Source: a virus
Taxonomy: Duplodnaviria; Caudoviricetes
DNA: 30,056 nucleotides
Virus record (IMG/VR): IMGVR_UViG_3300032255_000179
Span: 1 to 30,056 of that record
Strand: one strand, 5' to 3'
Shown here one piece after another: positions 3,617-29,245 of the stretch (its first letter is position 1; the number at the start of each line of letters is the position of its first letter). Under the pieces are notes generated by a model. It had not been told where the DNA came from, searched no databases, and saw nothing but the letters and a program-made list of their open reading frames with translations. Both the position numbers and the translations under genes were made by a program.

Positions 3617-4899
3617 TAAAAATAAATCACGAGCACACTGTGATCGGTGCGTTGCTTAGACGCCCGAGTGCGATTGATGAGATTGAACTGGTCGTTGACG
3701 ATTTTGAAATTGAATCGTACCGACTGATTTTTCAAACGATTATTGACACATTGGCTGCCAATCAAATTGCCGATGTAATCACCGTGTCGAGTCGCTTAGA
3801 AAAAACGCATCCGGGTATGACCTGGCTGCATTTTGTTGGAACAGCGGCAAGTGATTGCCCGTCCACGGCAAACATTGCGGGTTATGCAAAGCTGTTAAAG
3901 GCGGAGAGTCGAAACCGCAAAACCAAAGCGATTTGTAGCGATGTCCTGTATGAAATTGACAGTGTGCAAGAGAGTGAACAGATCATTGATCGCGCGGTAA
4001 AGCAGTTGATGGCGTTATCTGATACACGCCAAAGTTATGACAGCTCTATTTCTCAAACATTGAAAAAATCATTGGAGATGATTTCAGCGGCAGAAGAAAA
4101 TGAAGGTACGGTGGGTATTGCCTCGGGTATTGCAGAGCTTGATGCTGTGCTCGGTGGTTTTCATGACTCCGACCTGTATGTCATCGGTGCGCGTCCTGCA
4201 ATGGGTAAAACCGCTTTTATGTTAAATCTGGCCAATTACCACAATGAACAGGTTGGTATCATCAGCGCAGAGCAACCGGCAGAGCAGTTAGGTATCAGGC
4301 TGATTGCAATAAATGGCCAAGTTAATGTCCAGCGTATGCGCACCGGAACCATGAAAGAATATGACTACACAAAATTAACCAGTTCCGTTTCAAGGCTTCA
4401 CCAAAATAATAATATCTGGATTAATGATCGTTCGGGTATTGGTATTGTTGAACTCATTCGACAAGCTAGAAAGTGGAGACACTTGCACGGCATAAAAGCG
4501 CTCTATGTGGATTACATTCAACGTATCAAGTGGACAGATCAAAAAATCGCTAAATGGGAGCAGGTTGGAAATGTGGTGGGTGCGCTAAAGGATTTAGCCA
4601 GAGATTTAGATATACCGGTCATTGCCCTCGCACAGGTTAATCGGGACGTTGAAAAACGCGCTGATAAACGCCCCAATATGGGGGATCTTGCAAACTCTTC
4701 TGAAATTGAAAAAGAAGCGGATGTGATCATGACGCTTTACCGCGATGAAGTGTACAACGCCGAATCAGCAGACAAAGGCGTAATGGAAGTCAACGTCTGT
4801 AAAAATCGACATGGCCCCATTGGCTATGTACAAACTGTCTGGAATGCACCGTATATGCGGGTTGAAAATTTCACGCCTAAAATGGAGTTGGTTAAGTGA
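3613..4899 (+). CDS. dnaB: Replicative DNA helicase DnaB (phage-encoded)
   Basis: Walker A GARPAMGKT, VDYIQ, IPVIALAQVNR, DLANSSEIEKEAD, KNRHGP motifs. Confidence 0.95.
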   Translation: MIKINHEHTVIGALLRRPSAIDEIELVVDDFEIESYRLIFQTIIDTLAANQIADVITVSSRLEKTHPGMTWLHFVGTAASDCPSTANIAGYAKLLKAESRNRKTKAICSDVLYEIDSVQESEQIIDRAVKQLMALSDTRQSYDSSISQTLKKSLEMISAAEENEGTVGIASGIAELDAVLGGFHDSDLYVIGARPAMGKTAFMLNLANYHNEQVGIISAEQPAEQLGIRLIAINGQVNVQRMRTGTMKEYDYTKLTSSVSRLHQNNNIWINDRSGIGIVELIRQARKWRHLHGIKALYVDYIQRIKWTDQKIAKWEQVGNVVGALKDLARDLDIPVIALAQVNRDVEKRADKRPNMGDLANSSEIEKEADVIMTLYRDEVYNAESADKGVMEVNVCKNRHGPIGYVQTVWNAPYMRVENFTPKMELVK

Positions 4900-8595: not shown

Positions 8596-9108
8596 CTAGG
8601 CTTTCTTAAAGGCCTCGTTTTCACCTGCTGCATCTAACGCCATATTGTATATTTTGGGGCTTAGCTTGAAGCCGGTTGTGATGAGGCGGTCAAGGTAGGG
8701 TTGAACCTTTAGAGTGACGCCTTTCTTTTTTGCGCTTAGCAGCACACCAACCATCCCTACAATGGTGATTTCCATTTTTTTAGCGTGTCCTCGGCCTAAT
8801 TTTTCGTCAATTATCAGTAGGTCTGCATTCATCTGTTTTGCAAGTGCTATCGCCTCAGACTCTCCCGCATCCAGTGTTTTGAGTAGCGTATCGACCAGAG
8901 GTTTGTCTTTAACCGATACCCTTTTTATCCAGGGATAGGTTTGAGCTTCGTATGATCCTGGATTTTTCAGTCCGTGCGATGTCAGTTCAACATAAACCGC
9001 ATCTGGAATGTAAATGGTTGTGTAAAGCTGGTGAAGTATATTTAACGCACCTATTTTAGCCAGGTGCGTAATTGCAGTTGTGTCACTTACAACGATTTGG
9101 TATGCCAT
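8596..9108 (-). CDS. DUF3368 PIN-domain protein (putative toxin, COG2405-like)
   Basis: VVSDTT.I..L, IPDAVY.E, LDAGESEAIALA, LLIIDEK.GR..A, G.VGVLL.AK motifs. Confidence 0.9.
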   Translation of the reverse strand: MAYQIVVSDTTAITHLAKIGALNILHQLYTTIYIPDAVYVELTSHGLKNPGSYEAQTYPWIKRVSVKDKPLVDTLLKTLDAGESEAIALAKQMNADLLIIDEKLGRGHAKKMEITIVGMVGVLLSAKKKGVTLKVQPYLDRLITTGFKLSPKIYNMALDAAGENEAFKKA

Positions 9109-9589: not shown

Positions 9590-10204
9590 ATGGCAGTAGG
9601 CAACGACACGCGCTTAGAAGTGCAGGCCAGAATAGCCAAGCTCCTGGAACAATACGGCAAAGATTACAACTTCACCCTGTTACTGGCTGAGTACCCTGAA
9701 GTTCCCAAGCCCACGTTTTACCGCTGGATTAATAAAATTCACAGCAGCGGTGTGCCCGGACAAAATGCCATACGCAAGGCCCGTAACCGGGTAAAGAAAA
9801 AAACTAAAAAAGAAGATATTAAAACCGTTCACCAGCACGTTGCCGTTCAAGTGGTTGAACACCTGCCCGCAACCCCCACCGTTCAAGAAACCCACGGCAT
9901 GAGTCTGGAGCAGGTCGCGATTGAATTAAACCGCTGTATAGATAATGCCAATAAAGTCGTTGAGTATGCCAAGCGCGAAGATGGCAAGGTACGCAATGCA
10001 AAATTACTGCTCACCGCATCAGAGCACCTAAGGCGCACCATCGAAACCTCCGCCCGTTTAATGGAAATGCTCTGGGACATAAAACGCACAGAACAATTTC
10101 ATCAGGCCATATTCAAACGATTAAAAGAGCGTGATCCTGCATTTGTCGAGTTGATCTTAAGTGATCTTAAACAGCTAAACATCGACTGGGGCATCGATGT
10201 TTAG
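9590..10204 (+). CDS. Putative terminase small subunit
   Basis: N-terminal HTH (VPKPTFYRWI), helical C-terminus; overlaps the start of the large terminase. Call rests mainly on position. Confidence 0.6.
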   Translation: MAVGNDTRLEVQARIAKLLEQYGKDYNFTLLLAEYPEVPKPTFYRWINKIHSSGVPGQNAIRKARNRVKKKTKKEDIKTVHQHVAVQVVEHLPATPTVQETHGMSLEQVAIELNRCIDNANKVVEYAKREDGKVRNAKLLLTASEHLRRTIETSARLMEMLWDIKRTEQFHQAIFKRLKERDPAFVELILSDLKQLNIDWGIDV

Positions 10205-12233
10205 CCGCCAGCGTTCTTTATTTAATCACTCCAGGCAATCACTTGAAAACAAAATAACCGAATTTGAAACTGAGACCGGTTTTAAAATTACTGAGCGGGT
10301 CATACCCGAGGACATGACCTTTCGCCAGTGGTGCGAAAAGTTAGGGACGCAAGGCCTAAAAGTTGATGACCACCCGTTCACACTGGAAAATCGCCAGGCA
10401 CTGCATTTTGTCTATGACCTCATTCCGACCACCCCCGAGCAAGCTTTCAAAAAGCACATCGTCTTAATGAAAGGCGCACAAATGGGCCTGACAATATGGG
10501 AGATGCTGGCTAATATTTACATGGCGATGAAATGGTCGCCCTGCAAAATAGGCATGTATGTACCGGACAGAGGGCTTGCTGGTTACAAAAGTGCTGAACG
10601 GTTTATGCCCGTGGTGCGAACTGTACCCGCAGCCTATGATCTGTTGACGGAACCGGATGCCAATACCGGGCGCAAAAAAGGCGAAGGTAACATTTTAAAC
10701 CGCACCATGGGCGCGAGCCGGTTCTTGTTCCTGTGGACCAGTGGCAAGGTCGCCACCGAGTCATTCCCGCTCGATGTTGTGAGCTTTGATGAAGTACAGG
10801 AAATGCTCATCGCCGACATGGAAAAAACCATGGAACGGATGTCAGCCTCAGTCATTCGTTTTACCCTGATGTTATCCACGGCCAAGTGGCCGGATTCCGA
10901 TATACACTTCTGGTACAAGCTAGGCAAAGGGTATCGCTTCTATACACAATGCGGTTGTGAGGGCGGCGTCATTCTGGATGATCACTTCCCGCACTTTGTG
11001 GTATTCAATGAGGATCAATACATAAGCGCACCAGCCAATGAGTACGTGTATGTGTGCCCAGTCTGTAATACCTATATTCCCGATGCTCAGGTCGGTGACT
11101 GGGTAGCGGATAATCCAGATGCGTGGATTGATTCAGTCCACCTACCGCAAATTCTCAGCCCTACCGTGAGCCCACGTGAGTTGATCGAGTCTTACAATAA
11201 TGCCGAAGATATGCAGAACTTCTATAACCGAAAACTCGGCAAGCCTTATACCGACCCATCTCAAATACCGGTTAACTTAGAAATTCTTAACCAGTGCGCA
11301 AAGCAGGGAATCGCCGCAGGCGTCGTTTGGAAAGCACAAGCCCGAGGCACCTATATGGGCATAGATCAAATGGGCGCGTTCAATGTTGTTATTATTAAAG
11401 AGCGCTTAGATGATGGCCGACAAGCCGTCATTCACGTAGAGGCCATTTATAATGATAACCCCTTTAAACGGTGTGATGAACTCATGCGCGATTATGGCGT
11501 TGCCGTATGCGTCGTTGAAACCCTGCCCAATTACAACGATGCAAAACGCTTTGCAGGTCGGCACAGAGGCCGAGTCTTTTTAGCCGGTTACGCCAATATA
11601 GAAGATAATATGCTGCGCTGGGGCGATGCAAACGTATCTAAAGCCGATAGAAAAACAGACCAGCAAGAACGGGATCGTTACACCGTTACATTAGATCAGT
11701 ACAAATGTATGCAAACCGCCATGGCACGGTTTATTCGAACCCAGTGTTTATTCCCGAATCCCAAAGGGTTAACTCAGGAAGTCATAGATAAAGGCGTAAA
11801 AAAGCGCATTGCCCTATTAAAAACAATGGTGTTTTTGCACTTTACCAAAACCGCATTAGTCGTTGAAAAAGACCCTGAAGAAAAAAAATACAAGCGTAAA
11901 GTCGTTAAAGTCGGCATCGACCCGCATTTCAGCTATGCCAATATGCTGTGTGATGTGGCCTGGGCCAGAGCGCATGGTACATCACAGTTCATCATTCCAC
12001 AGACACAGGAACAAGCAGCTCAGGAAAACCAACAGAAGATCGTGGAAAAAGGGCTCCCAGGCTTGCCCAATCAAGTCGTATCACTGCTTCAGTCGCTACC
12101 CGAAGGTGAAGTGTGCGGGCGTTGTGCAAGCTATGACCGCGAAAAAGGCGACTGGTGTAATGAGCGGGGGTTTGTGGTGCGCGCAAGAGATCCGGGGTGT
12201 TTGGTTTATATGGCTGATCCTTATTTGAGTTAA
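10197..12233 (+). CDS. Terminase large subunit, GpA family
   Basis: KGAQMGLT Walker A variant, VVSFDEV Walker B, STAK, FYN.KLG.PY, GIDQ nuclease motif, Cys-rich C-terminus. Confidence 0.88.
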   Translation: MFSRQRSLFNHSRQSLENKITEFETETGFKITERVIPEDMTFRQWCEKLGTQGLKVDDHPFTLENRQALHFVYDLIPTTPEQAFKKHIVLMKGAQMGLTIWEMLANIYMAMKWSPCKIGMYVPDRGLAGYKSAERFMPVVRTVPAAYDLLTEPDANTGRKKGEGNILNRTMGASRFLFLWTSGKVATESFPLDVVSFDEVQEMLIADMEKTMERMSASVIRFTLMLSTAKWPDSDIHFWYKLGKGYRFYTQCGCEGGVILDDHFPHFVVFNEDQYISAPANEYVYVCPVCNTYIPDAQVGDWVADNPDAWIDSVHLPQILSPTVSPRELIESYNNAEDMQNFYNRKLGKPYTDPSQIPVNLEILNQCAKQGIAAGVVWKAQARGTYMGIDQMGAFNVVIIKERLDDGRQAVIHVEAIYNDNPFKRCDELMRDYGVAVCVVETLPNYNDAKRFAGRHRGRVFLAGYANIEDNMLRWGDANVSKADRKTDQQERDRYTVTLDQYKCMQTAMARFIRTQCLFPNPKGLTQEVIDKGVKKRIALLKTMVFLHFTKTALVVEKDPEEKKYKRKVVKVGIDPHFSYANMLCDVAWARAHGTSQFIIPQTQEQAAQENQQKIVEKGLPGLPNQVVSLLQSLPEGEVCGRCASYDREKGDWCNERGFVVRARDPGCLVYMADPYLS

Positions 12234-12575
12234 TTGACTGTGGGTTTAATGCTGAGATTAAAGAAATAATCAGAAGTATGGTATTTACGCAAGGTATTGA
12301 TAAATAAAGCATAAATGGCACTTCCACAATATGTTAACTTTTCTCGTTAGAATTCTTTTTTAGAGTTTTTTTCTTGTTTAGGTCAAACTGTCCTTTGGTC
12401 TCTCTTTCTTTATTTATTGCTCTTCCTATTGTATTTTTCCAATCTCTTTCTATCTTGAGATTGTCTGGTTTAGGGCCTATTTTTTCTTTTTCATGATTTT
12501 TCCCTAGTTAGAAAGATAGGGCTTGCATCTCTATCTGATAGGGATATAATAAAGCCAGTTAGAGAGGATTTGTCT

Positions 12576-13094
12576 ATGTCATCACAATTTGAAAACTTTG
12601 CTGGAATCTTCCGTTTGGCATTAGACGGCAAGAAAGAAGAAGCTATTAATGCAGTAATGGCTGAAAGAGCTAGGTTAGTTGCCTTTAAAGCTGAGCTTAC
12701 TGACAAGCTTGCAAATGCAGATAAAGATTTAGCAATGTTAAATACTATATTGCCTCCTGCTGCTTTGGAGAGTGTGGTTCCAGCACCTTCGCCAAAAGGT
12801 ATTGTCAATTCTGTTGCATCAGCACGAGACTCTATTGATATGGTTGAACAGCGCATATCAGATGCAAAAATCAAAGAAGAACGTGACTTAGCCATTATTG
12901 ATGCAGCGAAAGAACTTGGCGGAATGTATGCACAATTTACTACTGTAAGCATAGCCAATGAACTTAAGAATAAAGGAATCGAAACTGGTGTTCCTGAGAA
13001 TAGAATAAGTACAGTTATTAGTCGCCTTCTTCTTCGTCACGAACAGGAGTTTGAGAAGGTCGAAACAGGTATGTATAAGCTTAAAAATGCTTAA
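12576..13094 (+). CDS. Hypothetical moron protein: coiled coil plus C-terminal wHTH-like domain
   Basis: ATG 12576 after GAGG; IANEL..KG......ISTVISRLL....FEKVETGMYKL resembles a winged helix; AT-rich upstream region and its own terminator. Confidence 0.6.
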   Translation: MSSQFENFAGIFRLALDGKKEEAINAVMAERARLVAFKAELTDKLANADKDLAMLNTILPPAALESVVPAPSPKGIVNSVASARDSIDMVEQRISDAKIKEERDLAIIDAAKELGGMYAQFTTVSIANELKNKGIETGVPENRISTVISRLLLRHEQEFEKVETGMYKLKNA

Positions 13095-13109
13095 TATACA
13101 GAATAAGGT

Positions 13110-13146
13110 GGACTCCCTACGCATTCCAGTGCGTGGGAGTCCTTTT
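13110..13146 (+). terminator. Rho-independent terminator-like hairpin
   Basis: GGACTCCC-T-ACGCA-TTCCAG-TGCGT-GGGAGTCC followed by TTTT. Confidence 0.65.
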
Positions 13147-13187
13147 ATCAACCAGTGTCTATCAGGCACATAACTTAGGAGACCAGA

Positions 13188-13262
13188 ATGCGTTTGGAAA
13201 ACGAGACTGGGGCAGCCATCATTAGTTTGACGGTCGATGAACCCGCAGCACTTATACCTTGA
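13188..13262 (+). CDS. Possible 24-aa peptide MRLENETGAAIISLTVDEPAALIP
   Basis: RBS TTAGGAG 6 nt before the ATG; lies between the hairpin and the tRNA. Confidence 0.3.
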   Translation: MRLENETGAAIISLTVDEPAALIP

Positions 13263-13288
13263 GTTTAAGTGCTGCGGAAAACTTTTTT

Positions 13289-13388
13289 GCAGGAATGGCG
13301 GAAACGGTAGACGCGATAACTTTGGAAGTTATTGAACACTAAACCTTTTCGAGAGGGGTTCGTGCGAGTTCGAATCTCGTCTCCTGCA
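13289..13388 (+). tRNA. Atypical class II tRNA: Leu-like body, anticodon TGG (Pro), 31-nt variable region, no encoded CCA
   Basis: Acceptor GCAGGAA/CTCCTGC+A73 (A7-C66 mismatch); D arm GCGGAAACGGTAGACGC; anticodon arm ATAAC-TTTGGAA-GTTAT; T arm GCGAG-TTCGAAT-CTCGT. Confidence 0.85.
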
Positions 13389-13585
13389 ATCTAAGTATAT
13401 ACAAAATGTTTTTAATTTGCACGTTTTGGCTCTAAGTATTGAAGTCTCTTACCTGCTGGCTTCTGTATTACAATAGATAGACGCTCTCTATCTATCATTT
13501 TTCTAGTATTGTATTTATACTCAAACTCATCAATGCCTCACACTACAGAATACTTAAAAAAAAATATAACCTTTATATTATTGGT

Positions 13586-13770: not shown

Positions 13771-14061
13771 TTACAACTTAATCACCGTTTTCATTGCAGC
13801 TAATAATTCCGCTTTGTATGGCCCCGTAATCTCAACGGGTATATTTTTAAGAAACAACCGATTAGCACAAATAAATAGATATTGCGGAATAGCACAATGG
13901 TGCTTGAACTGAACCCGTAACCAGTGCGTATAATCATCTACTGGTTGCGGCGGAGCTGCCCATGACACCGCCCCAGGGGTTGTATCAATCGTTGAAAAGT
14001 TAACACTTGCACCATATTGAATAGGTGGCCTGAGTTTGAGTAATTCATCATCGCTTTGCAT
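13771..14061 (-). CDS. Hypothetical protein, probably late-expressed and leaderless
   Basis: 96 aa; preceded at exact spacing by the TAATCGTGA-N3-CACGCT-N6-ATG motif. Confidence 0.65.
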   Translation of the reverse strand: MQSDDELLKLRPPIQYGASVNFSTIDTTPGAVSWAAPPQPVDDYTHWLRVQFKHHCAIPQYLFICANRLFLKNIPVEITGPYKAELLAAMKTVIKL

Positions 14062-14067
14062 TATATA

Positions 14068-14085
14068 AGCGTGATGTCACGATTA
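14068..14085 (-). promoter_or_regulatory. Putative phage late promoter (leftward)
   Basis: Minus strand TAATCGTGA-CAT-CACGCT-TATATA-ATG(14061). Confidence 0.7.
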
Positions 14086-14099
14086 ATCTTATACATCCG

Positions 14100-14117
14100 T
14101 AATCGTGATGACATGCT
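14100..14117 (+). promoter_or_regulatory. Putative phage late promoter (portal)
   Basis: TAATCGTGA-TGA-CATGCT-TGTCTC-ATG(14124). Confidence 0.7.
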
Positions 14118-14123
14118 TGTCTC

Positions 14124-15875
14124 ATGCCAGACAACAGACGAGACAAACCCGACCAAATCGCATTTAACTTTGCCGCACCTTCTCAGGAGCGTTATGACGC
14201 GAATGCAGAGCTCTCCCAAACCTATCAACCCCTCGCCTCAGAGCTACTACCCACCGAAGAGCTAAAACCGGTGATAGAACACATCATGAATGACCTGGCC
14301 GAACAGGACATGATGCAAAAAGCACAGGGTAAAATCATCGTGCCATTTCCCCAAAAGCAACAAACAAAGCGGGGGATGCAATCGGTTTATCTGGATGAAC
14401 TGCAGGTCTTTGCCGCAGGGGATTATTTTGATAAACCCAGCCCACTGGGATTTGATTCATTGCGCCAGATGGTGGATCAAACCCCCATCTTAAATGCGGT
14501 GATCTTAACGCGCATACGCCAGATTAATCGGTTTTGTCGGCCACAGGAAAATGAAGACTCACCGGGTTTTGTCATTCGACACATTGATTCAGATCATCAA
14601 TTACAAAGCAGTGAAGAGCAATCCATAAAGTTACTGCATCGTTTTGTGAATAACTGTGGTTGGGAGTTTAACCCGCGCCAACGCCAGCGACTAAAACGCA
14701 ATAACTTCACCGGGTTTATGGCTAAAGTGGTGCGCGATTCTTTAACCATGGATTCAGCCGCTATTGAAACCGAGTTTAAGCGGGACAAATCAAAAGGCAT
14801 TGATGGATTTTATGCGGTCGATGGCGCAACGATACGCCTATGTACCGAGGAAGGTTATCAGGGTGATGATGAAATATTCGCCCTGCAGGTCGTGCAAGGA
14901 TTAGTGCGCACCGCGTACAGCTACGAGGATTTAATCTATGTACCTAGAAACCCCAGAACCGATGTCAGATTAGCCGGTTACGGCCTGGGTGAAACCGAAC
15001 TTTTAATTCGTGTTGTCACCGGCTTTTTAAACGCCATGACCTACAACATCAAAGGCTTTGATGATAACGCCATTCCGAAAGGGATGCTGCATTTATCAGG
15101 GGATTATGACACCAATGACCTAACCGCATTTAAACGGTATTGGAATGCTATGGTAAAAGGCATTAACAATGCCTGGACCGTGCCGGTCATGGTCTCCAAA
15201 GATCAGGAAAGCAAAGCCAGCTTTGAGCGTTTCGGCATTGAATTTAATGAAATGTATTTTTCAAAATGGATGACGTTTCTCACCTCCATTATCTGTGCCG
15301 TCTATGGCATGTCACCGGATGAAATTAACTTTGAAAGTTTTGCCTCCTCTCAGTCATCATTATCCGGGAGCGATACCGCCGAAAAATTAGCCGACTCAAA
15401 AGATAAAGGCTTGCGCCCATTAATGTCCTATCTGGAATCCATCATGACGGATTACATCATTACGGACTTTTCAGACAAGTATGTTTTTCGTTGGGCAGGG
15501 CTAGACCCAGAAGATCAGGAAAAGCGCCATGAAATGCGCAAGTTGATATTAACTGTCAACGAAGCACGGGCGCAGGAAGGCCATGAAGCCATGGAGGGGC
15601 CACTCGGGGATGCGCCCTTGAACCCATCCCTAATGGGTGCCTGGATGCAACAACAGCAACAGGCGCAGGAAGACTATGGCCAGGAGGCAGAAGATCAAGG
15701 TGAACCAGAAGGCGGCGAGGTAGAAGAGCAAGACCAGTCCGAAGGTGAAGCACTTAATCAAAAGGATGAGCGCGAAAACAATAATAATGAAACTCAGGAT
15801 TTTGGGGGGGATGATCGTCAGGGTGACTTTGGTAAGGCGTTTAGCGTACCCACGATTTATACCATCGGTGATTAG
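14124..15875 (+). CDS. Phage portal protein
   Basis: VDG.TIR, YVPRNPRTD..LAGYGL.E.E, P.G.L, IICAVYGMSPDEI, KGLRPLM, LTVNEARA..G..., acidic tail; downstream of terminase. Confidence 0.88.
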   Translation: MPDNRRDKPDQIAFNFAAPSQERYDANAELSQTYQPLASELLPTEELKPVIEHIMNDLAEQDMMQKAQGKIIVPFPQKQQTKRGMQSVYLDELQVFAAGDYFDKPSPLGFDSLRQMVDQTPILNAVILTRIRQINRFCRPQENEDSPGFVIRHIDSDHQLQSSEEQSIKLLHRFVNNCGWEFNPRQRQRLKRNNFTGFMAKVVRDSLTMDSAAIETEFKRDKSKGIDGFYAVDGATIRLCTEEGYQGDDEIFALQVVQGLVRTAYSYEDLIYVPRNPRTDVRLAGYGLGETELLIRVVTGFLNAMTYNIKGFDDNAIPKGMLHLSGDYDTNDLTAFKRYWNAMVKGINNAWTVPVMVSKDQESKASFERFGIEFNEMYFSKWMTFLTSIICAVYGMSPDEINFESFASSQSSLSGSDTAEKLADSKDKGLRPLMSYLESIMTDYIITDFSDKYVFRWAGLDPEDQEKRHEMRKLILTVNEARAQEGHEAMEGPLGDAPLNPSLMGAWMQQQQQAQEDYGQEAEDQGEPEGGEVEEQDQSEGEALNQKDERENNNNETQDFGGDDRQGDFGKAFSVPTIYTIGD

Positions 15876-15879
15876 CAAA

Positions 15880-17457
15880 ATGATTGTTAAAGGGGATCAT
15901 GTTTATTTTCAAACCCCAAAAGGTCCCCGCAGTGGGGAAGTAAAAGCCGTGGGTAAACATGGGGCGAAGGTTTTATGTGATGGAAAACATCATAAAGTTA
16001 AACATGCTCATGTACTGGGTATGAAACAAAAAATTGAGCGAAAGTTTACAGTAATTGATCAGGGTGGCGATGGTGCGCTGGTAGAAGACAGTGAAGGGAA
16101 GCAACTTTATATCCATGATTCACAAGGGCATTTAAAGCAGGCATTGGCCGGTGATTTAACAAACGAAAAAAAGCCAGAAAAACTGTCTAAGTCATTTAAT
16201 GTTGAAAACAAAGCAATCTTATTTTTAAAAGCCGGACCACTTAAAAACAGAGCCGGATTAAGTCTGCAGGAAGTCACTGATAATCAGGGGCATATTACCC
16301 ACAAATGGAAACATACCAGTGGACCGGTCAAAGCGGAACGTGAAAAAAGGGGAAGTGAAAAAGGTTATGGTACCCATCACATGGAAGCCGGGGATGTCAT
16401 TGATTTTGCCGTGGGGCAGGTAAAAGGCCGTGGTAAAATTATGGCGGCCGGTAAAGACGGTGCAACCGTTAAGGACGCACAAGGCCATGAGCATAAAGTC
16501 CTATGGTCAGAAGTCACAGGCCACCAACCGGCAAAGCATAAAAAGATTGATCGAGATTCCCCAGAAAAAGCGTCGCCAAAATCATCGCCAAAAGCGTCCC
16601 AGAAAGCGATCCATCGTGATGTGTTTGAGGCAAGTGAGTATTTTGAACAACACAATGATGAATCCGTCACGCCTGAAGAAATATTAGCGGATTTTCCAGC
16701 GGATACAGCAGAGAAAATTAACCAGGCCAAAGAGCGGTTATCGTCCATAGAACAAACAATCGACAAGTACAAAAAAGATGGCTTATATGATGCCGATCGA
16801 AAACGCTTGCATAATGAAATAGCAAACAAGATTTTATCAAAAAAGGCGGTGCAAGCGGCGATGCCTCAAAACGGTGAAAAACCCACATTTACCCTCTTAG
16901 GGGGGCGAGGGGGTTCCGGTAAGAGCTGGTTCAAAGGTAAGGTATATCATCCAGAAAAGGCCATTGTTCTGGATGCCGATGAAATTAAGGGTATGCTACC
17001 CGAATACGAGGGGTGGAATGCCTTTCAGGTCCATGAAGAATCCAGTGATTTGTTCGATGAAATAACCGAACGGGCAACACAACTGGGGCTAAATATAGTG
17101 CATGACGCCACTATGAAAACAGAGAAAAAAGCCGTTGCGTTGGTAACGCAATTTAAAGCCAATAACTATCAGGTAGAAGCAAACTATATGCATTTACCTC
17201 GACAGGAGGCGGCAAAGCGAGCGGTATCTCGGTTTTTAGGAAAAAGTGGACGTTACGTGCCCGTCGAAGTCGTGTTATCAAATACGCACAATGAGCAGAG
17301 TTTTGACGGGGTTAGAAAGCTGGCGGATAAATGGCGTTTTTATGACAATAATGTATCTAAAGGGGATCAACCTATATTGATCTCAGCATCCGAAAATTCC
17401 CTGAAAAAATCACTTACCTCTGTTATAATTTTTAAGCGCAAGGGAGTTCAGTTATGA
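15880..17457 (+). CDS. Multidomain protein: KOW/SH3-like repeats plus zeta-toxin-family P-loop kinase
   Basis: LGGRGGSGKS, VLDADEIK..LPEY, VHEESS, NIVHDATM, GRYVP, YDN; two GD.V.F....G...G.V.A.GK.GA.V repeats; ATG 15880 preferred because 15745 overlaps the portal. Confidence 0.8.
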   Translation: MIVKGDHVYFQTPKGPRSGEVKAVGKHGAKVLCDGKHHKVKHAHVLGMKQKIERKFTVIDQGGDGALVEDSEGKQLYIHDSQGHLKQALAGDLTNEKKPEKLSKSFNVENKAILFLKAGPLKNRAGLSLQEVTDNQGHITHKWKHTSGPVKAEREKRGSEKGYGTHHMEAGDVIDFAVGQVKGRGKIMAAGKDGATVKDAQGHEHKVLWSEVTGHQPAKHKKIDRDSPEKASPKSSPKASQKAIHRDVFEASEYFEQHNDESVTPEEILADFPADTAEKINQAKERLSSIEQTIDKYKKDGLYDADRKRLHNEIANKILSKKAVQAAMPQNGEKPTFTLLGGRGGSGKSWFKGKVYHPEKAIVLDADEIKGMLPEYEGWNAFQVHEESSDLFDEITERATQLGLNIVHDATMKTEKKAVALVTQFKANNYQVEANYMHLPRQEAAKRAVSRFLGKSGRYVPVEVVLSNTHNEQSFDGVRKLADKWRFYDNNVSKGDQPILISASENSLKKSLTSVIIFKRKGVQL

Positions 17458-21008: not shown

Positions 21009-24000
21009 ATGCGATTACTAATTTTTCTAAAAGGGCTATCAGAGCAACTGGGTTTATTCGATACCCCCGTTGAAGTGCATGGGCATATCAGGGCCGATGG
21101 TGTTTATGTAAAACCCCATACCTCAAAGCGTAAAAAGAAATCCCCCCAACCCAAAAAGCGTACGCGTTTAAAACGTGAAGATGCGGCTATCGGCGATTTG
21201 TTTGATGATGAAAATCGTGAGACTCAAGATGCGTCGGTAAAAAAAACAGGACCTGAATCAAAACCGAAAACGAAGCTCCCCCCAAAAACTAGCAAAGAAA
21301 AAATTAACAAAAAAAAAGTAAAACTGGCAATTGATCCTTTAGTCTTTGGAGTTAATGCCGGGGTCAGCAAAACCGAACGCCGCCGCTTAAATGCCAGCGC
21401 GGTGGAGATTATTCAAACACAGGCGAAAAGATATACCGAAAAACAAAAGACGATATTAAGACAGTATAGCGGTCAGGGTGGCGTGGGGGATTCACTCAAT
21501 GAATTTTACACCCGCCCGGATGTCACTCTCGCCATGTGGGATATATTAAATAAACTCGGCATTGATCAGGGTAATGTGCTCGAACCCTGCGTTGGTACCG
21601 GGGTGTTTATGCATACCGCACCGGGTGACATTAAGTTGACCGGTGTTGAACTGGAGCCCACCAGTGCTAACATTGCAAACGCCCTGCACGGTGTGCAACA
21701 TGAAGTCATCACCGGTTCACTGGAGCGCTTTGCCATCACCGACCCAAGACAATTTGATGCCGTCGTGGGCAATGTTCCGTTTGGGTTACGTGGCTCACTG
21801 ATTAAAGAAGACAAAAGCCAGCTTAAAACCGCTGAGCAATATTTTGTTGATACGGCTATTGATAAAACCAAAGACGGTGGCATTGTGGCGCTCATTGTAC
21901 CCACCGGCATTATGGATAATAAAAACACCCGCGCCTTTCGTGAACGGGTATTACGCAAAGCCCAATTCATTGGCGCACACCGTATGCCCAACAGTGCGTT
22001 TGAGCATGCCCATACGGGGGTGACGACCGATATCGTTATTTTTCGTAAACGTCCTACCGATGTCGGTCAGGCATTGGGCACGGTGAGCCAATCCGTATTA
22101 AAAGACCTGGAAACCCAGGGAGATAAATTCTGGGATGAAGAATTTCTAGCCGGGCAATATTTTTCAGGTCGGGGTAAAGCGCAGGTTTATGGTCGCCCGG
22201 AGGCGGGGTGGCGTTCAAAAGCGGGAATGGGTAATGATTTTACCGTGACCGGTTCAATGAAAGGTGTTGCTCAATCGCTATCTAACTGGCAACCGGAATT
22301 ACCCAGTGATGCACTCGCTATGCAGGATATTTTAAGTGCATTAGGGGATGATGAAAAAGCAAAAAACAAAGCGGTATCCGCGGCCCTTAAATCGCCCTAT
22401 GAGGTGGCAGCGTTAGGAGACACAAAAATCATTGATGGTGTGATTTATGTGCTTCAGGGGGAACCGCCTCGATGGCACCGGGCAGAGGATGATGAAGAAC
22501 CCGAGTCCGTATCTCAGGCGCGTGATCTTGCACAGAAAATAGAGACACTGGCTGAAGATCGTTTAACCGGTGTCGAAACATCCAAAGAAGAGACCAGACA
22601 GGATACGGTCAATGATCTGGATACGTATATTAAAAAGCATGGCATTCCGGCCAATAATAAAGACTTAATACTGGCGGCAAAACACGAACCGGTTTTATGG
22701 CGATTAATTGGGGCGGTTAATAATGATGGCCGTTATTCCGATTTAATCACTGGGCAAAAGCGCATCCTGGAGGGTAGCTTTGATGCGGTTGCCGCCAATC
22801 TATTAGCCAATGCGGATACCTTTTCTCCAGATGAGGTTGCCCGGTACTGGACAAAGGGGGATGCGGATGCGGCCCTGGATTATCTGTTTGCCTCACAACA
22901 CTACGCACTTAATATAGATGGGCTTAACTGGAGTAGTATGGATGATTATTTATCCGGTGAGCTATGGCCTAAAGTGGATGCACTGACTGAAAAATTAAAA
23001 GACAGTGCATTATCCTTAGAAATTCGAACTCAATATGAGCGACAGGAAAAGGCACTGACGCAGGTGATTGATCCTAAGCTGTTAGATGATGTTGAGATCA
23101 TGCTGAACTCAGGCTGGCTACCACTGGATGTGATCGAAGCCTATTTTAACGATGACATTGCACAATGGAAAAAAGATAACCCACAAAGCAGCTGGACACC
23201 AAAGGATCTAAAAATTCGTTTTGCATCGGGTTACTACACCGTAACCGGTGGACTATTTAATAGTGCCTTACTGGAAAAGTACCTTAATCGTACCGGTGTA
23301 CGCAAAGATGAGTTGCCGATGATCAATAACTGGAATGCCCGTTTTAAAGCGTGGGCGACTTCATCTGATCACAGGGAAAAATTAGAAGATTTATATAACC
23401 GCAAGTTTCGCGGTTACCGTGAAAAAACCTATTCCGATTTACCCATGGAGGTTCCTGGGATCAATCCCGCACTGGATGTTAATGCCTACCACTTTGAAGG
23501 TTTACGCTGGGCACTGGATCAGGGCAAAGGGATAATTGCCGCCGATGTAGGCTTGGGTAAAACCGGCAGAGCGTTAATGTTATCCCAGTTAGCCAAAGCA
23601 GGCGGTCAGGCCAAAAAGCCCATGATCGTTGTACCTAAATCGGTACTGGCAAACTGGATGGATGAGGCCGAATTCTGGTTCCCCGGATCGAAAGTGTTAA
23701 CCATCGGGGAAACGGTTAGCAAAGATAAAAACGGTAAGCTTAAATCCAGGTCAGACAATAAAGCCGAGCGCGATAGAAAACTACATGAACTATCACAAAA
23801 TGATTATGACTTTGTGCTCATGTCACAACCGGCCTGGAATGATCTGGATTTAAACCCGATTACAAAAGGTGAGTATGCAAACTCAGATTTCTGGGTGCAA
23901 CGTGGGGATGCATTAGGCAATGCGGGGGATAAGCGCGTTCGCAAAATTCGTGAATCCTATGAGCAAGCCTTAGCGGGGCGGGAATTTAACAAACGCACCA

Positions 24001-25724
24001 ATGCCATCTACTTTGATGACTTAGGGGTAGACATGGTCATTCTGGATGAAGCCCACGCGTATAAAAATCTGTATGCCGTTAAAACGCGCTTTGGTGAATC
24101 CCCTAAATTCTTAGGCGGCGGTGGATTATCGAATCGCGCACAGGACACCTATTTTAAAACCCGCTGGATACGGGAAAACAATCATGGCAAAGGCGTGTTT
24201 GGACTCACGGCAACGCCCACCAAAAATAGCCCCTTAGAGATTTATTCCATGCTATCTCACATAGCACCGGAAGCTTTTGATGCGATTGGCATTAAAAACA
24301 GTGAAGAGTTTTTAGATCGTTTCTGTGAATTCACCTCTGAAAACATCTTAACCACCAGTGGCGAAATAACAGAAGCCCTGGTGACCCGTGGTTTTAAAAA
24401 CCTGGATGAGTTGCGCGATATTATGCGCCGCTATATTGATCGTAAAACCGCAGAAGATGTCGGCTTAAAACTACCAGAACGCAATGATCATCAGCACATG
24501 ATTGATATGAGCGATGAACAGGAGACCGTGTACCAGGAATTGCGAGCACTTGCCGCAGACAATGATAGTGATGCCGAGGGTGATGCCCACATTTTTTCCA
24601 TCATGGACAAGATGGGTAAAGCCTCGATTGATCTTGAACTGTTAGGTGATGAGCATAAAGGGGCGCGTTCACCCAAAATGGAGGCCGCCACTACCCAGAT
24701 TCTTGAAGGCATGAAAGAGGGCGGACAGATTGTTTTCTCTGATCATATTTCCGTTCATGAAAAGTTAAAACAAGCCTTGATCAAGCAAGGTGTGAAAGAA
24801 GATGAAATTGCTATCGTCAATGCACAGGTGGCAAAAACTTCCCTACAGCGCCAGCGCATATCCAACGGATTTAATCAGGGCAAAATCAAGGTGGTGATAG
24901 GCAACACTGCCACTATGGGGGAGGGAATCAACTTACAGAAAAAAACCAGTGATATACATCATTTAGATTTACCCTGGGAACCTGCCTCTATGCAGCAACG
25001 TAATGGCCGAGGGTTACGCCAGGGCAATAAAAAACAATCCATGCGCATTCATACCTATTTGGCGAAAGGTTCATTTGATGGTTATCGCTATCAAACCATG
25101 GCGGCTAAAAAAGACTGGCAGGATTTACTCTGGCACGGTGGGGATCGAATTGATAATCAGGCCCGTGAGGGAAAATTTGGCCGTGATGAAATGTTAATTA
25201 TGCTATCGGCCAATCCTGATGAAGCCCGCGCTCAGTATAAAACCAATAAACAGGCGGCAACGCAGCGCGCGGCGGTTGTTAAGCGTCAGACAGCGGCAAA
25301 ACGCTTTGTGAAATTCCAGCAAGTAAAACAGTCATTAAATAAGCTTAAAAACAAAACCACCCACAGTGCGCAGCGTTTATCAGCCCGTGTCTCACAACTG
25401 CGCAGTAAGTTAAAAGAGGATAGTTTTTTTACGGCAAAAGATGCACTGGATGTTAAAGGGCCAGTATTAATTCAGCCGGATACAGGCAGTGCCTATTATA
25501 AAGGCGTCACGTTTGAAATGGATGCGGGTAAAAATACACCGATAGTTTATTCAGAGTTGGAAAAAAGTCAGTGGGTGGTCACTGGTGTGACCCAAAAGCA
25601 TGTAAAAGCCAGGCTACTGGATCGGCCCTGGTCTGCCTCTATCGACTTTGAACTGGATAAAATGGATAAAGGCTTATCACCGCTAATAAGTCAACCCGAT
25701 GAGAATCAAAAGGAAGCCGCATAA
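21009..25724 (+). CDS. DarB-like N6-adenine methyltransferase plus SNF2 helicase fusion
   Basis: MTase: EFYT, VLEPCVGTG, VVGNVPFG, TDIVIFRK. Helicase: DVGLGKT, VVPKS, DEAH, TATP, GEGINLQ, QRNGRGLRQG. Confidence 0.9.
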   Translation: MRLLIFLKGLSEQLGLFDTPVEVHGHIRADGVYVKPHTSKRKKKSPQPKKRTRLKREDAAIGDLFDDENRETQDASVKKTGPESKPKTKLPPKTSKEKINKKKVKLAIDPLVFGVNAGVSKTERRRLNASAVEIIQTQAKRYTEKQKTILRQYSGQGGVGDSLNEFYTRPDVTLAMWDILNKLGIDQGNVLEPCVGTGVFMHTAPGDIKLTGVELEPTSANIANALHGVQHEVITGSLERFAITDPRQFDAVVGNVPFGLRGSLIKEDKSQLKTAEQYFVDTAIDKTKDGGIVALIVPTGIMDNKNTRAFRERVLRKAQFIGAHRMPNSAFEHAHTGVTTDIVIFRKRPTDVGQALGTVSQSVLKDLETQGDKFWDEEFLAGQYFSGRGKAQVYGRPEAGWRSKAGMGNDFTVTGSMKGVAQSLSNWQPELPSDALAMQDILSALGDDEKAKNKAVSAALKSPYEVAALGDTKIIDGVIYVLQGEPPRWHRAEDDEEPESVSQARDLAQKIETLAEDRLTGVETSKEETRQDTVNDLDTYIKKHGIPANNKDLILAAKHEPVLWRLIGAVNNDGRYSDLITGQKRILEGSFDAVAANLLANADTFSPDEVARYWTKGDADAALDYLFASQHYALNIDGLNWSSMDDYLSGELWPKVDALTEKLKDSALSLEIRTQYERQEKALTQVIDPKLLDDVEIMLNSGWLPLDVIEAYFNDDIAQWKKDNPQSSWTPKDLKIRFASGYYTVTGGLFNSALLEKYLNRTGVRKDELPMINNWNARFKAWATSSDHREKLEDLYNRKFRGYREKTYSDLPMEVPGINPALDVNAYHFEGLRWALDQGKGIIAADVGLGKTGRALMLSQLAKAGGQAKKPMIVVPKSVLANWMDEAEFWFPGSKVLTIGETVSKDKNGKLKSRSDNKAERDRKLHELSQNDYDFVLMSQPAWNDLDLNPITKGEYANSDFWVQRGDALGNAGDKRVRKIRESYEQALAGREFNKRTNAIYFDDLGVDMVILDEAHAYKNLYAVKTRFGESPKFLGGGGLSNRAQDTYFKTRWIRENNHGKGVFGLTATPTKNSPLEIYSMLSHIAPEAFDAIGIKNSEEFLDRFCEFTSENILTTSGEITEALVTRGFKNLDELRDIMRRYIDRKTAEDVGLKLPERNDHQHMIDMSDEQETVYQELRALAADNDSDAEGDAHIFSIMDKMGKASIDLELLGDEHKGARSPKMEAATTQILEGMKEGGQIVFSDHISVHEKLKQALIKQGVKEDEIAIVNAQVAKTSLQRQRISNGFNQGKIKVVIGNTATMGEGINLQKKTSDIHHLDLPWEPASMQQRNGRGLRQGNKKQSMRIHTYLAKGSFDGYRYQTMAAKKDWQDLLWHGGDRIDNQAREGKFGRDEMLIMLSANPDEARAQYKTNKQAATQRAAVVKRQTAAKRFVKFQQVKQSLNKLKNKTTHSAQRLSARVSQLRSKLKEDSFFTAKDALDVKGPVLIQPDTGSAYYKGVTFEMDAGKNTPIVYSELEKSQWVVTGVTQKHVKARLLDRPWSASIDFELDKMDKGLSPLISQPDENQKEAA

Positions 25725-26051
25725 ATGAATGAAATTAATATTGAAAAAGCCATGCGAAATGTTTTGCAAATCTTACAAACCCAGCCGGAACACTATAAGC
25801 GATTTGGTATTTATTGGTGGACGGTTAAAGCCTTACTAAAACAATATTATAGTCAGGATAATATATACCTACTCGGAGATTATGTAGATGAAAGCATAAC
25901 AGATCGTGTGCCTGATGCTAATACGCAAGCGTTACTGAAAATGGCATTTGAGGAATATGCGCACAATACCGCCTACGGTCGTGATGATAAAACAGTGGAA
26001 GACACTGAGGGCGAAATCGTTACTATTTATGATGAGGATGCTGGTTTGTAA
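25725..26051 (+). CDS. Hypothetical protein
   Basis: 108 aa, starts immediately after the DarB-like stop codon. Confidence 0.65.
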   Translation: MNEINIEKAMRNVLQILQTQPEHYKRFGIYWWTVKALLKQYYSQDNIYLLGDYVDESITDRVPDANTQALLKMAFEEYAHNTAYGRDDKTVEDTEGEIVTIYDEDAGL

Positions 26052-27846: not shown

Positions 27847-28581
27847 ATGGATGATAAAACACCATATATAAATGATTTTGCAAATCGCTCCTTTCGAGAC
27901 TACGCAGACCAAGATTACATAATGGCTCGCATTGCGTACCGGAAAGAGTTTGATCAGCAGTTTCGCTGGTGTTCACTTCAAGCATTGGAAAAATATCTAA
28001 AAGCAATACTTATCTATAATCGTGTTTCTGCTAAAGGCATTGGACATGATCTTGTAAAAGCAGTTAATAAAGTCAAAGGCATTAGTGATTTAGGCTTTTC
28101 ACTACCATCGGCTGATTCAGAAAAATTTATTGAGTATATCTCTACTTATGGAGCAGATAGATATTTAAGCCATCCCACACACCTAAGAGACAATGCATTG
28201 CTTACGCTAGATAAAACAGTATGGTGTGTTAGAAGGTATTGTTTCTTTATGCGCCAAGTTATAAAAAAAGATGGAAATGATGTTCATTTATTTGAACACA
28301 ATAAGAACAAAGCCACTAATCCGTACTACGAAACAAACAGACACAAATATAAAATATTTAATGGTTATCTAGAAAAGGTCATAGATAAACGACTTCCTTC
28401 ATACAATGATCTGGTGTGGAAGAACTTTTTTTATGGGCGAGTTAAGAAACACAAAATCAAGAATTTTACATTTAGAATGAGCAGCCAAAATCCTACTCAT
28501 TCATTACACCCGGAAATGTTTGACACACTAAGTCAGTTAGTAGATTTTCCAAAAGCGGTTAAAAATGAATATAAGAGCTAA
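27847..28581 (+). CDS. Cassette 2: HEPN-domain protein
   Basis: ADQDYI.AR, QALEKYLKA, GHDL, RY pattern of the HEPN superfamily. Confidence 0.75.
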   Translation: MDDKTPYINDFANRSFRDYADQDYIMARIAYRKEFDQQFRWCSLQALEKYLKAILIYNRVSAKGIGHDLVKAVNKVKGISDLGFSLPSADSEKFIEYISTYGADRYLSHPTHLRDNALLTLDKTVWCVRRYCFFMRQVIKKDGNDVHLFEHNKNKATNPYYETNRHKYKIFNGYLEKVIDKRLPSYNDLVWKNFFYGRVKKHKIKNFTFRMSSQNPTHSLHPEMFDTLSQLVDFPKAVKNEYKS

Positions 28582-28647
28582 CAAGGAGCTCGTTCGGATG
28601 CAAACTACGCTGCGCTTCGTTTGTATCGCACAGCTTAAACGTTAGAA
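28576..28647 (+). repeat. attC site 2 (72 bp)
   Basis: AGCTAAC-AAGGA-GCTCGTTCGGATGCAAAC...GTTTGTATCGCACAGC-TTAAAC-GTTAGAA. Confidence 0.85.
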
Positions 28648-28675
28648 TCATGCAGAGTGATGAGTAAAACTAAAT

Positions 28676-29245
28676 ATGAGCAATAAACTTAAAAAGTGGA
28701 GCAAGTCTCTTAATGTAATTGGTTGCCAAATACAGAACATGCTTATTAAGCAAGACACTCATCATACGTTGCTAAGAATAATCGCAGAAAATAAATCTCT
28801 TCATGAGCACAACCCATTTTATGACCACCTATTCCACACCTATATCTCATATATTTCAGTATCACTGAGAAGGCAGCTAAAAAGAGATAAAAACAGTATA
28901 AGTTTGTATGGGGTGCTATCGGACATAGCAGATAACATGAGTGATATTCCACTCCATAAGCACATAGAGCTAGACCCAGAAAGTGATATAGCACGTCTTA
29001 AGGAAGCATCGTCCGTAATCGAAAAATATGTTGATAGGAGAATAGCTCATACAGATAAGCGTTCTTTAGATAAGCGTTCTTTAGATAAGCTTCCAAACCC
29101 TAGTGAAGTTGAGAACTGTATTGAAATCATGAAAGAAATTCATAAAAGATACAATTCAGTAGTAAACAAAGTTGACGTAGAGTTAATGCCTGTAAGGTAC
29201 GACTGGACTCATATATTTGAAATTCCATGGGTACAGGTAAAATGA
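28676..29245 (+). CDS. Cassette 3: AbiU2-like HEPN protein
   Basis: LRRQL..D.NSISL..VL and YVDRRIAH.D motifs; helical protein. Confidence 0.6.
   Translation: MSNKLKKWSKSLNVIGCQIQNMLIKQDTHHTLLRIIAENKSLHEHNPFYDHLFHTYISYISVSLRRQLKRDKNSISLYGVLSDIADNMSDIPLHKHIELDPESDIARLKEASSVIEKYVDRRIAHTDKRSLDKRSLDKLPNPSEVENCIEIMKEIHKRYNSVVNKVDVELMPVRYDWTHIFEIPWVQVK

Follow-up and report, generated by a model that had tools for sequence, protein, structure and literature searches.

Why would a phage carry a tRNA whose body belongs to leucine and whose anticodon belongs to proline? The window, by which we mean the whole stretch of 30,056 bases that was analysed, holds one tRNA only. This gene, at 13289-13388 on the plus strand, has a Leu-type body, a UGG anticodon and no encoded CCA; Rfam matches it to RF00005 (46.6 bits, E 4.1e-7) and ARAGORN names it tRNA-Pro(tgg), although in intron mode with a lowered threshold that program also gave spurious calls. 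The anticodon TGG (13323-13325, plus strand) lies in a seven-base loop, TTTGGAA (13321-13327), with A at position 37. In the acceptor stem we find G1-C72, C2-G71 and an A7/C66 mismatch, in the D arm A14, A15, G18, G19, A20a and G21, and at 13388 the discriminator A73. The variable region is 31 nt long (13333-13363, plus strand) and consists of the unpaired U44, a GAAC/GTTC basal stem, a 5' bulge, an inner hairpin and the two unpaired bases G47 and U48. An earlier note on this DNA had pointed out the same combination of Leu identity elements, Pro (UGG) anticodon and 31-nt variable region; sequence and Rfam bear it out, and every coordinate it gave is right.

Which synthetase would recognise such a molecule? 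As given in the text of PMC9976931, leucine identity in E. coli comprises A73, A15-U48, G18G19 and A20a and does not include the anticodon, and C2-G71 acts as an antideterminant against SerRS. Proline identity comprises A73, G72, G15:C48, G35, G36 and G37 (PMC9976931, same text). The window tRNA fits the E. coli leucine set: it has the A73 of bacterial tRNA-Leu, A15:U48, G18G19, A20a and the contacts between D and T loops, and departs from tRNA-Leu in its anticodon, which is TGG where NAG or YAA is expected. From the proline set it has G35, G36 and A73 and misses the rest, with G1-C72 in place of C1-G72, A15:U48 in place of G15:C48, A37 in place of G37 and 31 nt in place of a short variable loop. 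By these established identity rules, LeuRS should quite probably charge the window tRNA and a bacterial-type ProRS should do so poorly.

Is the anticodon real? The region is present in three runs; X1, possibly the source, was not counted. The X2 contig (depth 40) and the X3 contig (depth 3.3) come from two other studies and show 9 and 8 differences in or near the tRNA. None of these falls in the anticodon, which is TGG in both, and it is therefore not a base-call error, one of the outcomes that the earlier note had named as refuting its reading. Both contigs also have G at 13295 (G7), which pairs with C66, so that the A7/C66 mismatch, correctly spotted before, is private to the window copy.

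Homologs that keep UGG, the check proposed at the outset, are found in these two contigs and in a wider family. Our search motif joined the Leu D arm to the UGG loop; both are thus fixed in every match, and the D arm gives no independent evidence of Leu identity across the family. The motif matched 5 viral, at least 120 metagenome (about 160 estimated) and 43 genome stretches. Among the matches listed, 169 including the window, 121 are whole cloverleafs, 98 of them distinct; the 48 that were dropped were cut off, were 5' halves or were apparent intron-bearing tRNA-Leu. Strict criteria are passed by 79 of the 98, with 65% likeness over 43 free positions. Outside the positions fixed by the motif, A73 is present in 92/98 (missing in 6), U48 in 98/98, G1-C72 in 81/98 and C2-G71 in 80/98, and the Leu-type register of the variable arm (1+stem+2) is found in 76/98, the next best register in 13. 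Each stem position is paired in 88-98 of the 98 bodies, by several pair types each. A relaxed motif brought in further members with a variant D arm.

Could these genes encode tRNA-shaped RNAs that stay outside translation, as a regulatory or processing signal of an operon, a ligand of the protein encoded upstream or a near-neutral passenger? The long bulged variable arm of 39 members (26-40 nt) could hinder the ribosome, CCA is not encoded in 80 of the 98, and a precedent is proposed for allo-tRNA(UAU) in the text of PMC5389517. We consider such a role unlikely, given that A73, U48, the T loop and the 7-nt anticodon loop on its 5-bp stem are kept across bodies so different from one another, and that the arm is of ordinary length in 59 of the 98.

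The intact bodies also bear on another idea: that the gene is a decaying tRNA-Leu or a sequencing error, or that CCA has been reassigned to leucine. UGG is one change from UAG, the window copy has its mismatch, and two members (L107 and L146) are part of ordinary tRNA operons and resemble a tRNA-Leu(UAG) that has mutated. Taken together, these options are nevertheless hardly credible: UGG is kept in two other studies and in 98 distinct intact bodies. Of the 98, 89 are solitary, with no other ARAGORN tRNA nearby, and in the 69 members with A37 the loop is two changes away from host Leu(UAG) loops (29 have G37). As to the code, CCA in terL aligns to proline at 0.63 and CCG at 0.88 across 53 homologs, and to leucine at 0.00; the outcome is the same for 28 transposases. 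Reassignment was rejected, as CCA and CCG do not fall at conserved Leu columns and tRNA-Pro is kept in the four hosts checked. A private code for the transposase was likewise rejected, its CCA and CCG codons aligning to proline. Self-protection by codon avoidance is not seen in the transposases of the elements, where CCA and CCG make up 78% of 370 Pro codons.

All four hosts that were checked have a normal tRNA-Pro(UGG) with the C1-G72, G37 and short variable loop that the earlier note had given as typical; a loose tRNA-Pro motif search, itself at control level, merely picked the four regions, which ARAGORN then confirmed. Ordinary tRNA-Leu genes turned up under our motif in 3 of 5 hosts. Could the molecule instead be a tRNA for proline that uses a leucine scaffold, recognised by ProRS via G35 and G36 and adding to the supply of tRNA-Pro? 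With A73, these bases are Pro determinants, and some members go further towards proline (C1-G72 in 6/98, G37 as above). The idea is very unlikely all the same: the window copy has C72, A37 and A15:U48, a bacterial-type ProRS, which needs G72, is present in 3 of the 5 host genomes tested, the four hosts are already served, and the closest named phage relatives, among the matches listed, infect proteobacteria. Since the code is unchanged and hosts keep their tRNA-Pro, a UGG tRNA charged with leucine would be its competitor and a source of errors.

Where does the family live? Of the 43 genome loci 26 are intact, 16 of these in Acidobacteriota; among 401 Acidobacteriota genomes a non-Leu anticodon behind a Leu D arm occurs in 2, both times UGG, and one of the two is the seed. 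Several oddities surround the family. Six members (L002, L112, L128, L148, L151 and L158) combine C1-G72 with a long arm, which might make them substrates of ProRS as well as LeuRS. In L220 a second odd tRNA (4083-4157) lies 5 nt behind the UGG tRNA; its anticodon is GCU (Ser according to ARAGORN), but the variable loop is short and the D loop of Arg type, and the two genes may be a tandem missense pair. Eight stretches (L065, L102, L106, L126, L147, L161, L192 and L209) hold tRNA-Leu(UAG)-type 5' halves that end at TTGGGAT and run on into unrelated sequence, and L066, L186 and L192 also contain an intact tRNA-Leu(UAG), as expected for integration-site remnants. At viral loci (49 distinct intact bodies from 109 loci), about a dozen long-armed bodies have Gly, Ala, Arg, Trp or stop anticodons. 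Eleven of these long-armed viral tRNAs have a Leu-type D arm and A73 (L262, L270, L281, L304, L319, L235, L248, L277, L233, L276 and L322), with Gly, Ala, Trp, Arg, amber or ochre anticodons; no IS1595 was found near them, and L319 has a weak match to the winged-helix profile described below.

The family often travels in transposons. By a profile search, its family confirmed by Pfam (PF12762/PF12760), 44 of the 98 loci have an IS1595 transposase no more than 3 kb away, as do 33 of the 61 with at least 2.5 kb of context; the same search gave 0/39 for dropped matches and 0/104 for viral non-UGG loci. In the 27 loci with a long transposase, inverted repeats enclose the tRNA in 14 and exclude it in 1, and the other 12 gave none. 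Eleven of the 14 enclosing elements could be delimited, at 2.2-4.2 kb, and 9 of the 11 have an exact 8-bp target duplication. Thus family members show all three marks of an IS1595 passenger, namely the transposase, enclosing terminal inverted repeats and the 8-bp duplication. The window copy does not: true ends score 19.1 or more, the best repeat in the window reaches 3.5, and the window has no PF12762 match. A basic ORF of 55-75 aa with the motif HIPL...KVKPT and no Pfam match recurs in IS1595 cargo (L185:3759-3980, L201:5468-5662, L207:3722-3925, L212:4119-4289, L216:2626-2793). In L086 a UAU tRNA-like gene with a long D stem, resembling allo-tRNA(UAU), lies about 3.3 kb from the UGG tRNA and outside the IS1595 ends.

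How, then, did the window copy come to sit in a phage? The X2 contig matches the window at 12528-13501 only, with 88 differences in about 975 nt, and its flanks are unlike. The shared part contains an ORF and the tRNA and no other gene. ORF, leader and tRNA therefore move as one cassette (12528-13501, plus strand). The leader and tRNA also align with L124, a locus of a gammaproteobacterial genome at which a transposase follows; between the two, the inner part of the variable arm is nearly identical and the basal stem differs yet remains paired. We infer that the phage cassette derives from IS1595-type transposon cargo. A blastn comparison of the tRNA region with named phages and plasmids gave nothing beyond one 24-nt T-arm match, and within the flanks examined none of 53 terL-relative loci has a Leu-motif tRNA or a match to the cassette ORF.

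The window comes from a virus record, and its genes include those for a repressor, for replication, for the terminase and portal and for a DarB-like protein. The cassette sits between the terminase large subunit gene terL (10197-12233, plus strand) on its left and the portal gene (14124-15875, plus strand) on its right. The terL product is 45-56% identical to those of proteobacterial phages of 86-96 kb (10 of 44 matches listed). Ordinary tRNAs lie close by in six of the 53 terL-relative loci and in Aeromonas phage ST4; in ST4 they are found between terL and portal and include a normal tRNA-Pro. Other features of the window deserve a record: a DUF3368/PIN-like gene on the minus strand (8596-9108), a 28-nt imperfect inverted repeat at the portal start that is a possible operator (14058-14127), a 570-aa ORF with a Zeta_toxin/AAA_33 kinase domain that overlaps the end of the portal gene (15745-17457), a DarB-like methyltransferase-helicase gene followed by an Ulx-like anti-restriction gene (21009-26051), and HEPN-like (weak) and AbiU2 genes in an AT-rich stretch (27847-29245).

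That related phages also keep tRNAs in this slot fits a different role, in which the RNA is a decoy or stand-in that soaks up or resists an anticodon nuclease or a tRNA-modifying toxin. It would be an RNA antitoxin in transposons and a counter-defence in phage, and misreading by leucine would be a tolerated by-product or an emergency passage through CCA codons. In the text of PMC13056530, phage tRNAs are said to escape anticodon nucleases that act in immunity. Folds that attack tRNA or RNA do occur beside some members, as IS1595 cargo or as neighbours: Schlafen (L003), RelA_SpoT (L201), HicA (L216) and a HepT-like protein, and a divergent NYN-like gene is present at 10 loci. In L003 a Schlafen (AlbA_2) plus HATPase gene (1491-2939) lies inside the IS1595 element on the opposite strand, ending at the UGG tRNA. 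These enzymes, however, are not the same at different loci and are seen at a minority of them, the cassette common to the window and X2 consists of ORF and tRNA only, and a Leu body is poorly suited to replace tRNA-Pro. A decoy in any of these forms has, in our judgement, a rather small chance of being right. The last argument also led us to set aside tRNA-dependent lysogeny (PMC10865867), the body being no Pro replacement.

The partner of the window tRNA is the ORF upstream (P0001, 172 aa, 12576-13094, plus strand), predicted to be a DNA-binding regulator with look-alikes of HARE-HTH and Rok type. In its AlphaFold2 model, long N-terminal helices are joined by a disordered linker to a C-terminal helix-helix-hairpin unit (pLDDT 80) that we read as a probable winged helix. 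Foldseek matches are weak (all E > 0.001) and mostly winged helices, Rok among them; there is no Pfam match above cut-off and atlas scores stay under 0.9. A profile built from 17 other upstream ORFs matches the C-terminal part at 19.5 bits, where the best of 500 shuffles reaches 9.4. Those 17 and P0001 are the 18 ORFs that we picked by hand as coiled-coil plus winged helix; in a leave-one-out comparison 13 of the 18 are recovered at E < 0.01 and 5 fail. BLASTP found no direct similarity between P0001 and the ORF upstream in L124, and no P0001 relatives were found at viral loci.

Across the family, a same-strand ORF ends at most 300 nt upstream in 55/98 loci, and many of the others have only about 300 nt of flank. 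Domains in 39 scanned upstream ORFs include XRE plus IrrE/M78 in 3, SecB in 2 and DUF5343 in 2, with weak HARE-HTH or other helix-turn-helix matches in several, and no partner gene common to the whole family was found. Among 30 ORFs hand-picked as regulator-type, 18 end at most 62 nt from the tRNA. In such operons the slot directly behind a regulator gene is the position of the toxin gene. In the window, a strong terminator-like hairpin (13103-13148, plus strand) lies between the ORF and the tRNA, and a second leader hairpin (13243-13277, plus strand) ends 11 nt before the tRNA; in relatives its pairing is not fully kept, with wobble-compatible changes in L124 and two broken pairs in X2. Such a terminator is no common feature of the family: one was scored upstream in 4/94 loci against 3/282 shuffles by a simple scan that also missed the window's own hairpin, and promoter-like sites are at chance level (5 against 6.0 expected).

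The anatomy, the family, its status as transposon cargo, the gene order and the standard meaning of CCA are established. To explain them jointly we tentatively propose, at somewhat short of an even chance, that the UGG tRNA is charged with leucine, inserts it at CCA and CCG, and is the normally silent, inducible, toxin-like effector of the cassette. LeuRS would charge the tRNA and leucine would go in at CCA/CCG proline codons. The upstream protein would, judging by gene order, repress the cassette, until stress or infection by a phage releases it. Pro-to-Leu errors throughout the proteome would then slow or stop growth and could spoil the proteins of an incoming phage, as abortive defence or as a means of maintaining the element. 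The window copy would be an accessory phage cassette without transposon ends, perhaps damped by the terminator-like hairpin, the A7/C66 mismatch and the missing CCA. Against the toxin-like part of this proposal, the regulator set was hand-picked and no partner is shared by all loci; what the proposal has in common with toxin-antitoxin and abortive-infection systems is gene order, a translation poison is less obviously useful to a phage, and in relatives the place between terL and portal is held by ordinary tRNAs. Further points against the proposal are the CCA and CCG codons that the transposases retain, the C1-G72 of 6 members, the acceptor mismatch, missing CCA and hairpin of the window copy, and the allo-tRNAs, described below, that failed to suppress or decode. 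Of the three options first put forward for this gene, missense decoding, decoy and decay, the first is now the best supported, as homologs keep UGG, and the last is largely refuted by 98 distinct intact copies with covarying stems.

The same damping features would also suit a mild, constitutive mistranslation that benefits the carrier through proteome diversity or relief of proline stalling, with no toxin role. We find this highly improbable, the tRNA being rare and patchy, as in the Acidobacteriota genomes above, and tied to transposon cargo slots, not to core genomes. The inducible missense tRNA can be extended to a wider reading, possible but doubtful, in which a whole class of transposon and phage modules uses a repressor or infection sensor to silence a Leu-charged, Pro-reading tRNA whose release would corrupt the code of the cell and of the invading phage.

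Natural tRNAs that mistranslate are known from few families, to which the UGG family adds some 80 clean members. Because a single swap (Pro to Leu) is predicted, the transposon ends are defined and a predicted regulator lies next door, the purpose of missense tRNAs can be put to a direct test with a 1-kb cassette. Should the tRNA be the effector, code corruption joins the known means of defence and maintenance of mobile elements; if the wider module reading is true, we would have a natural, switchable counterpart of the firewall engineered by code swapping, and RNA toxins would gain a new type. The family has been hidden in public genomes, as annotation tools label its members tRNA-Pro or miss them, and its variable arms, extended by nature, might serve tRNA engineers as a scaffold.

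How does this family compare with known systems? Allo-tRNAs, as described in the text of PMC5389517, are also natural mismatches of identity and anticodon, many of them in Acidobacteria and with a long variable arm, and like the UGG family they occur near toxin-antitoxin and transposon genes. Some of those beside toxin-antitoxin genes mistranslate, and their induction killed E. coli; in the commonest group 0/6 amber variants acted as suppressors in E. coli, and certain irregular tRNAs were charged yet failed to decode (PMC5389517, same text). Allo-tRNAs differ in build: their acceptor branches are 8/4 or 9/3, their D arms tRNA-Sec-like, their identity is Ser or Ala and their anticodons vary, whereas the UGG family has a Leu D arm, A73 and UGG on a canonical 7/5 cloverleaf, which is also the form of the window tRNA. 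The main and supplementary text of PMC5389517, figures apart, has no word-start match to 'UGG'. The tRNA-ProX/ProRSx pair of Streptomyces (text of PMC11415595) shares with our family a dual-identity, mistranslating bacterial tRNA in which proline is involved. It runs the opposite way, with a Pro body, Ala, Thr or Asn anticodons and a dedicated synthetase adjacent; the window tRNA has neither the Pro body nor an A34 anticodon nor an adjacent ProRSx, and no synthetase is among the family's listed neighbour gene families. Engineered tRNA-Leu firewalls likewise put a foreign anticodon on a Leu body: according to the text of 10.64898/2026.09.17.752456, an anticodon-swapped phage tRNA-Leu inserts leucine in E. 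coli, and the altered code blocks phages. The firewalls are synthetic, use Ser codons and need a recoded host, whereas the UGG family is natural, would read Pro codons and goes with an unchanged host code. As mobile elements, its carriers resemble IS1595 elements with passenger genes (ISXO2-like transposase, PF12762) in transposase, terminal repeats, 8-bp duplication and cargo; the difference is that the cargo is a tRNA, and the window copy has no transposase or terminal repeat. In a literature made up mostly of papers outside subscription, the reviews PMC11415595 and PMC7609411 among them, we found no natural bacterial family with Leu body and UGG and no tRNA cargo of IS1595. The UGG family is likely a new variety of natural missense tRNA beside allo-tRNA and tRNA-ProX, one that would act like an allo-tRNA while being built differently.
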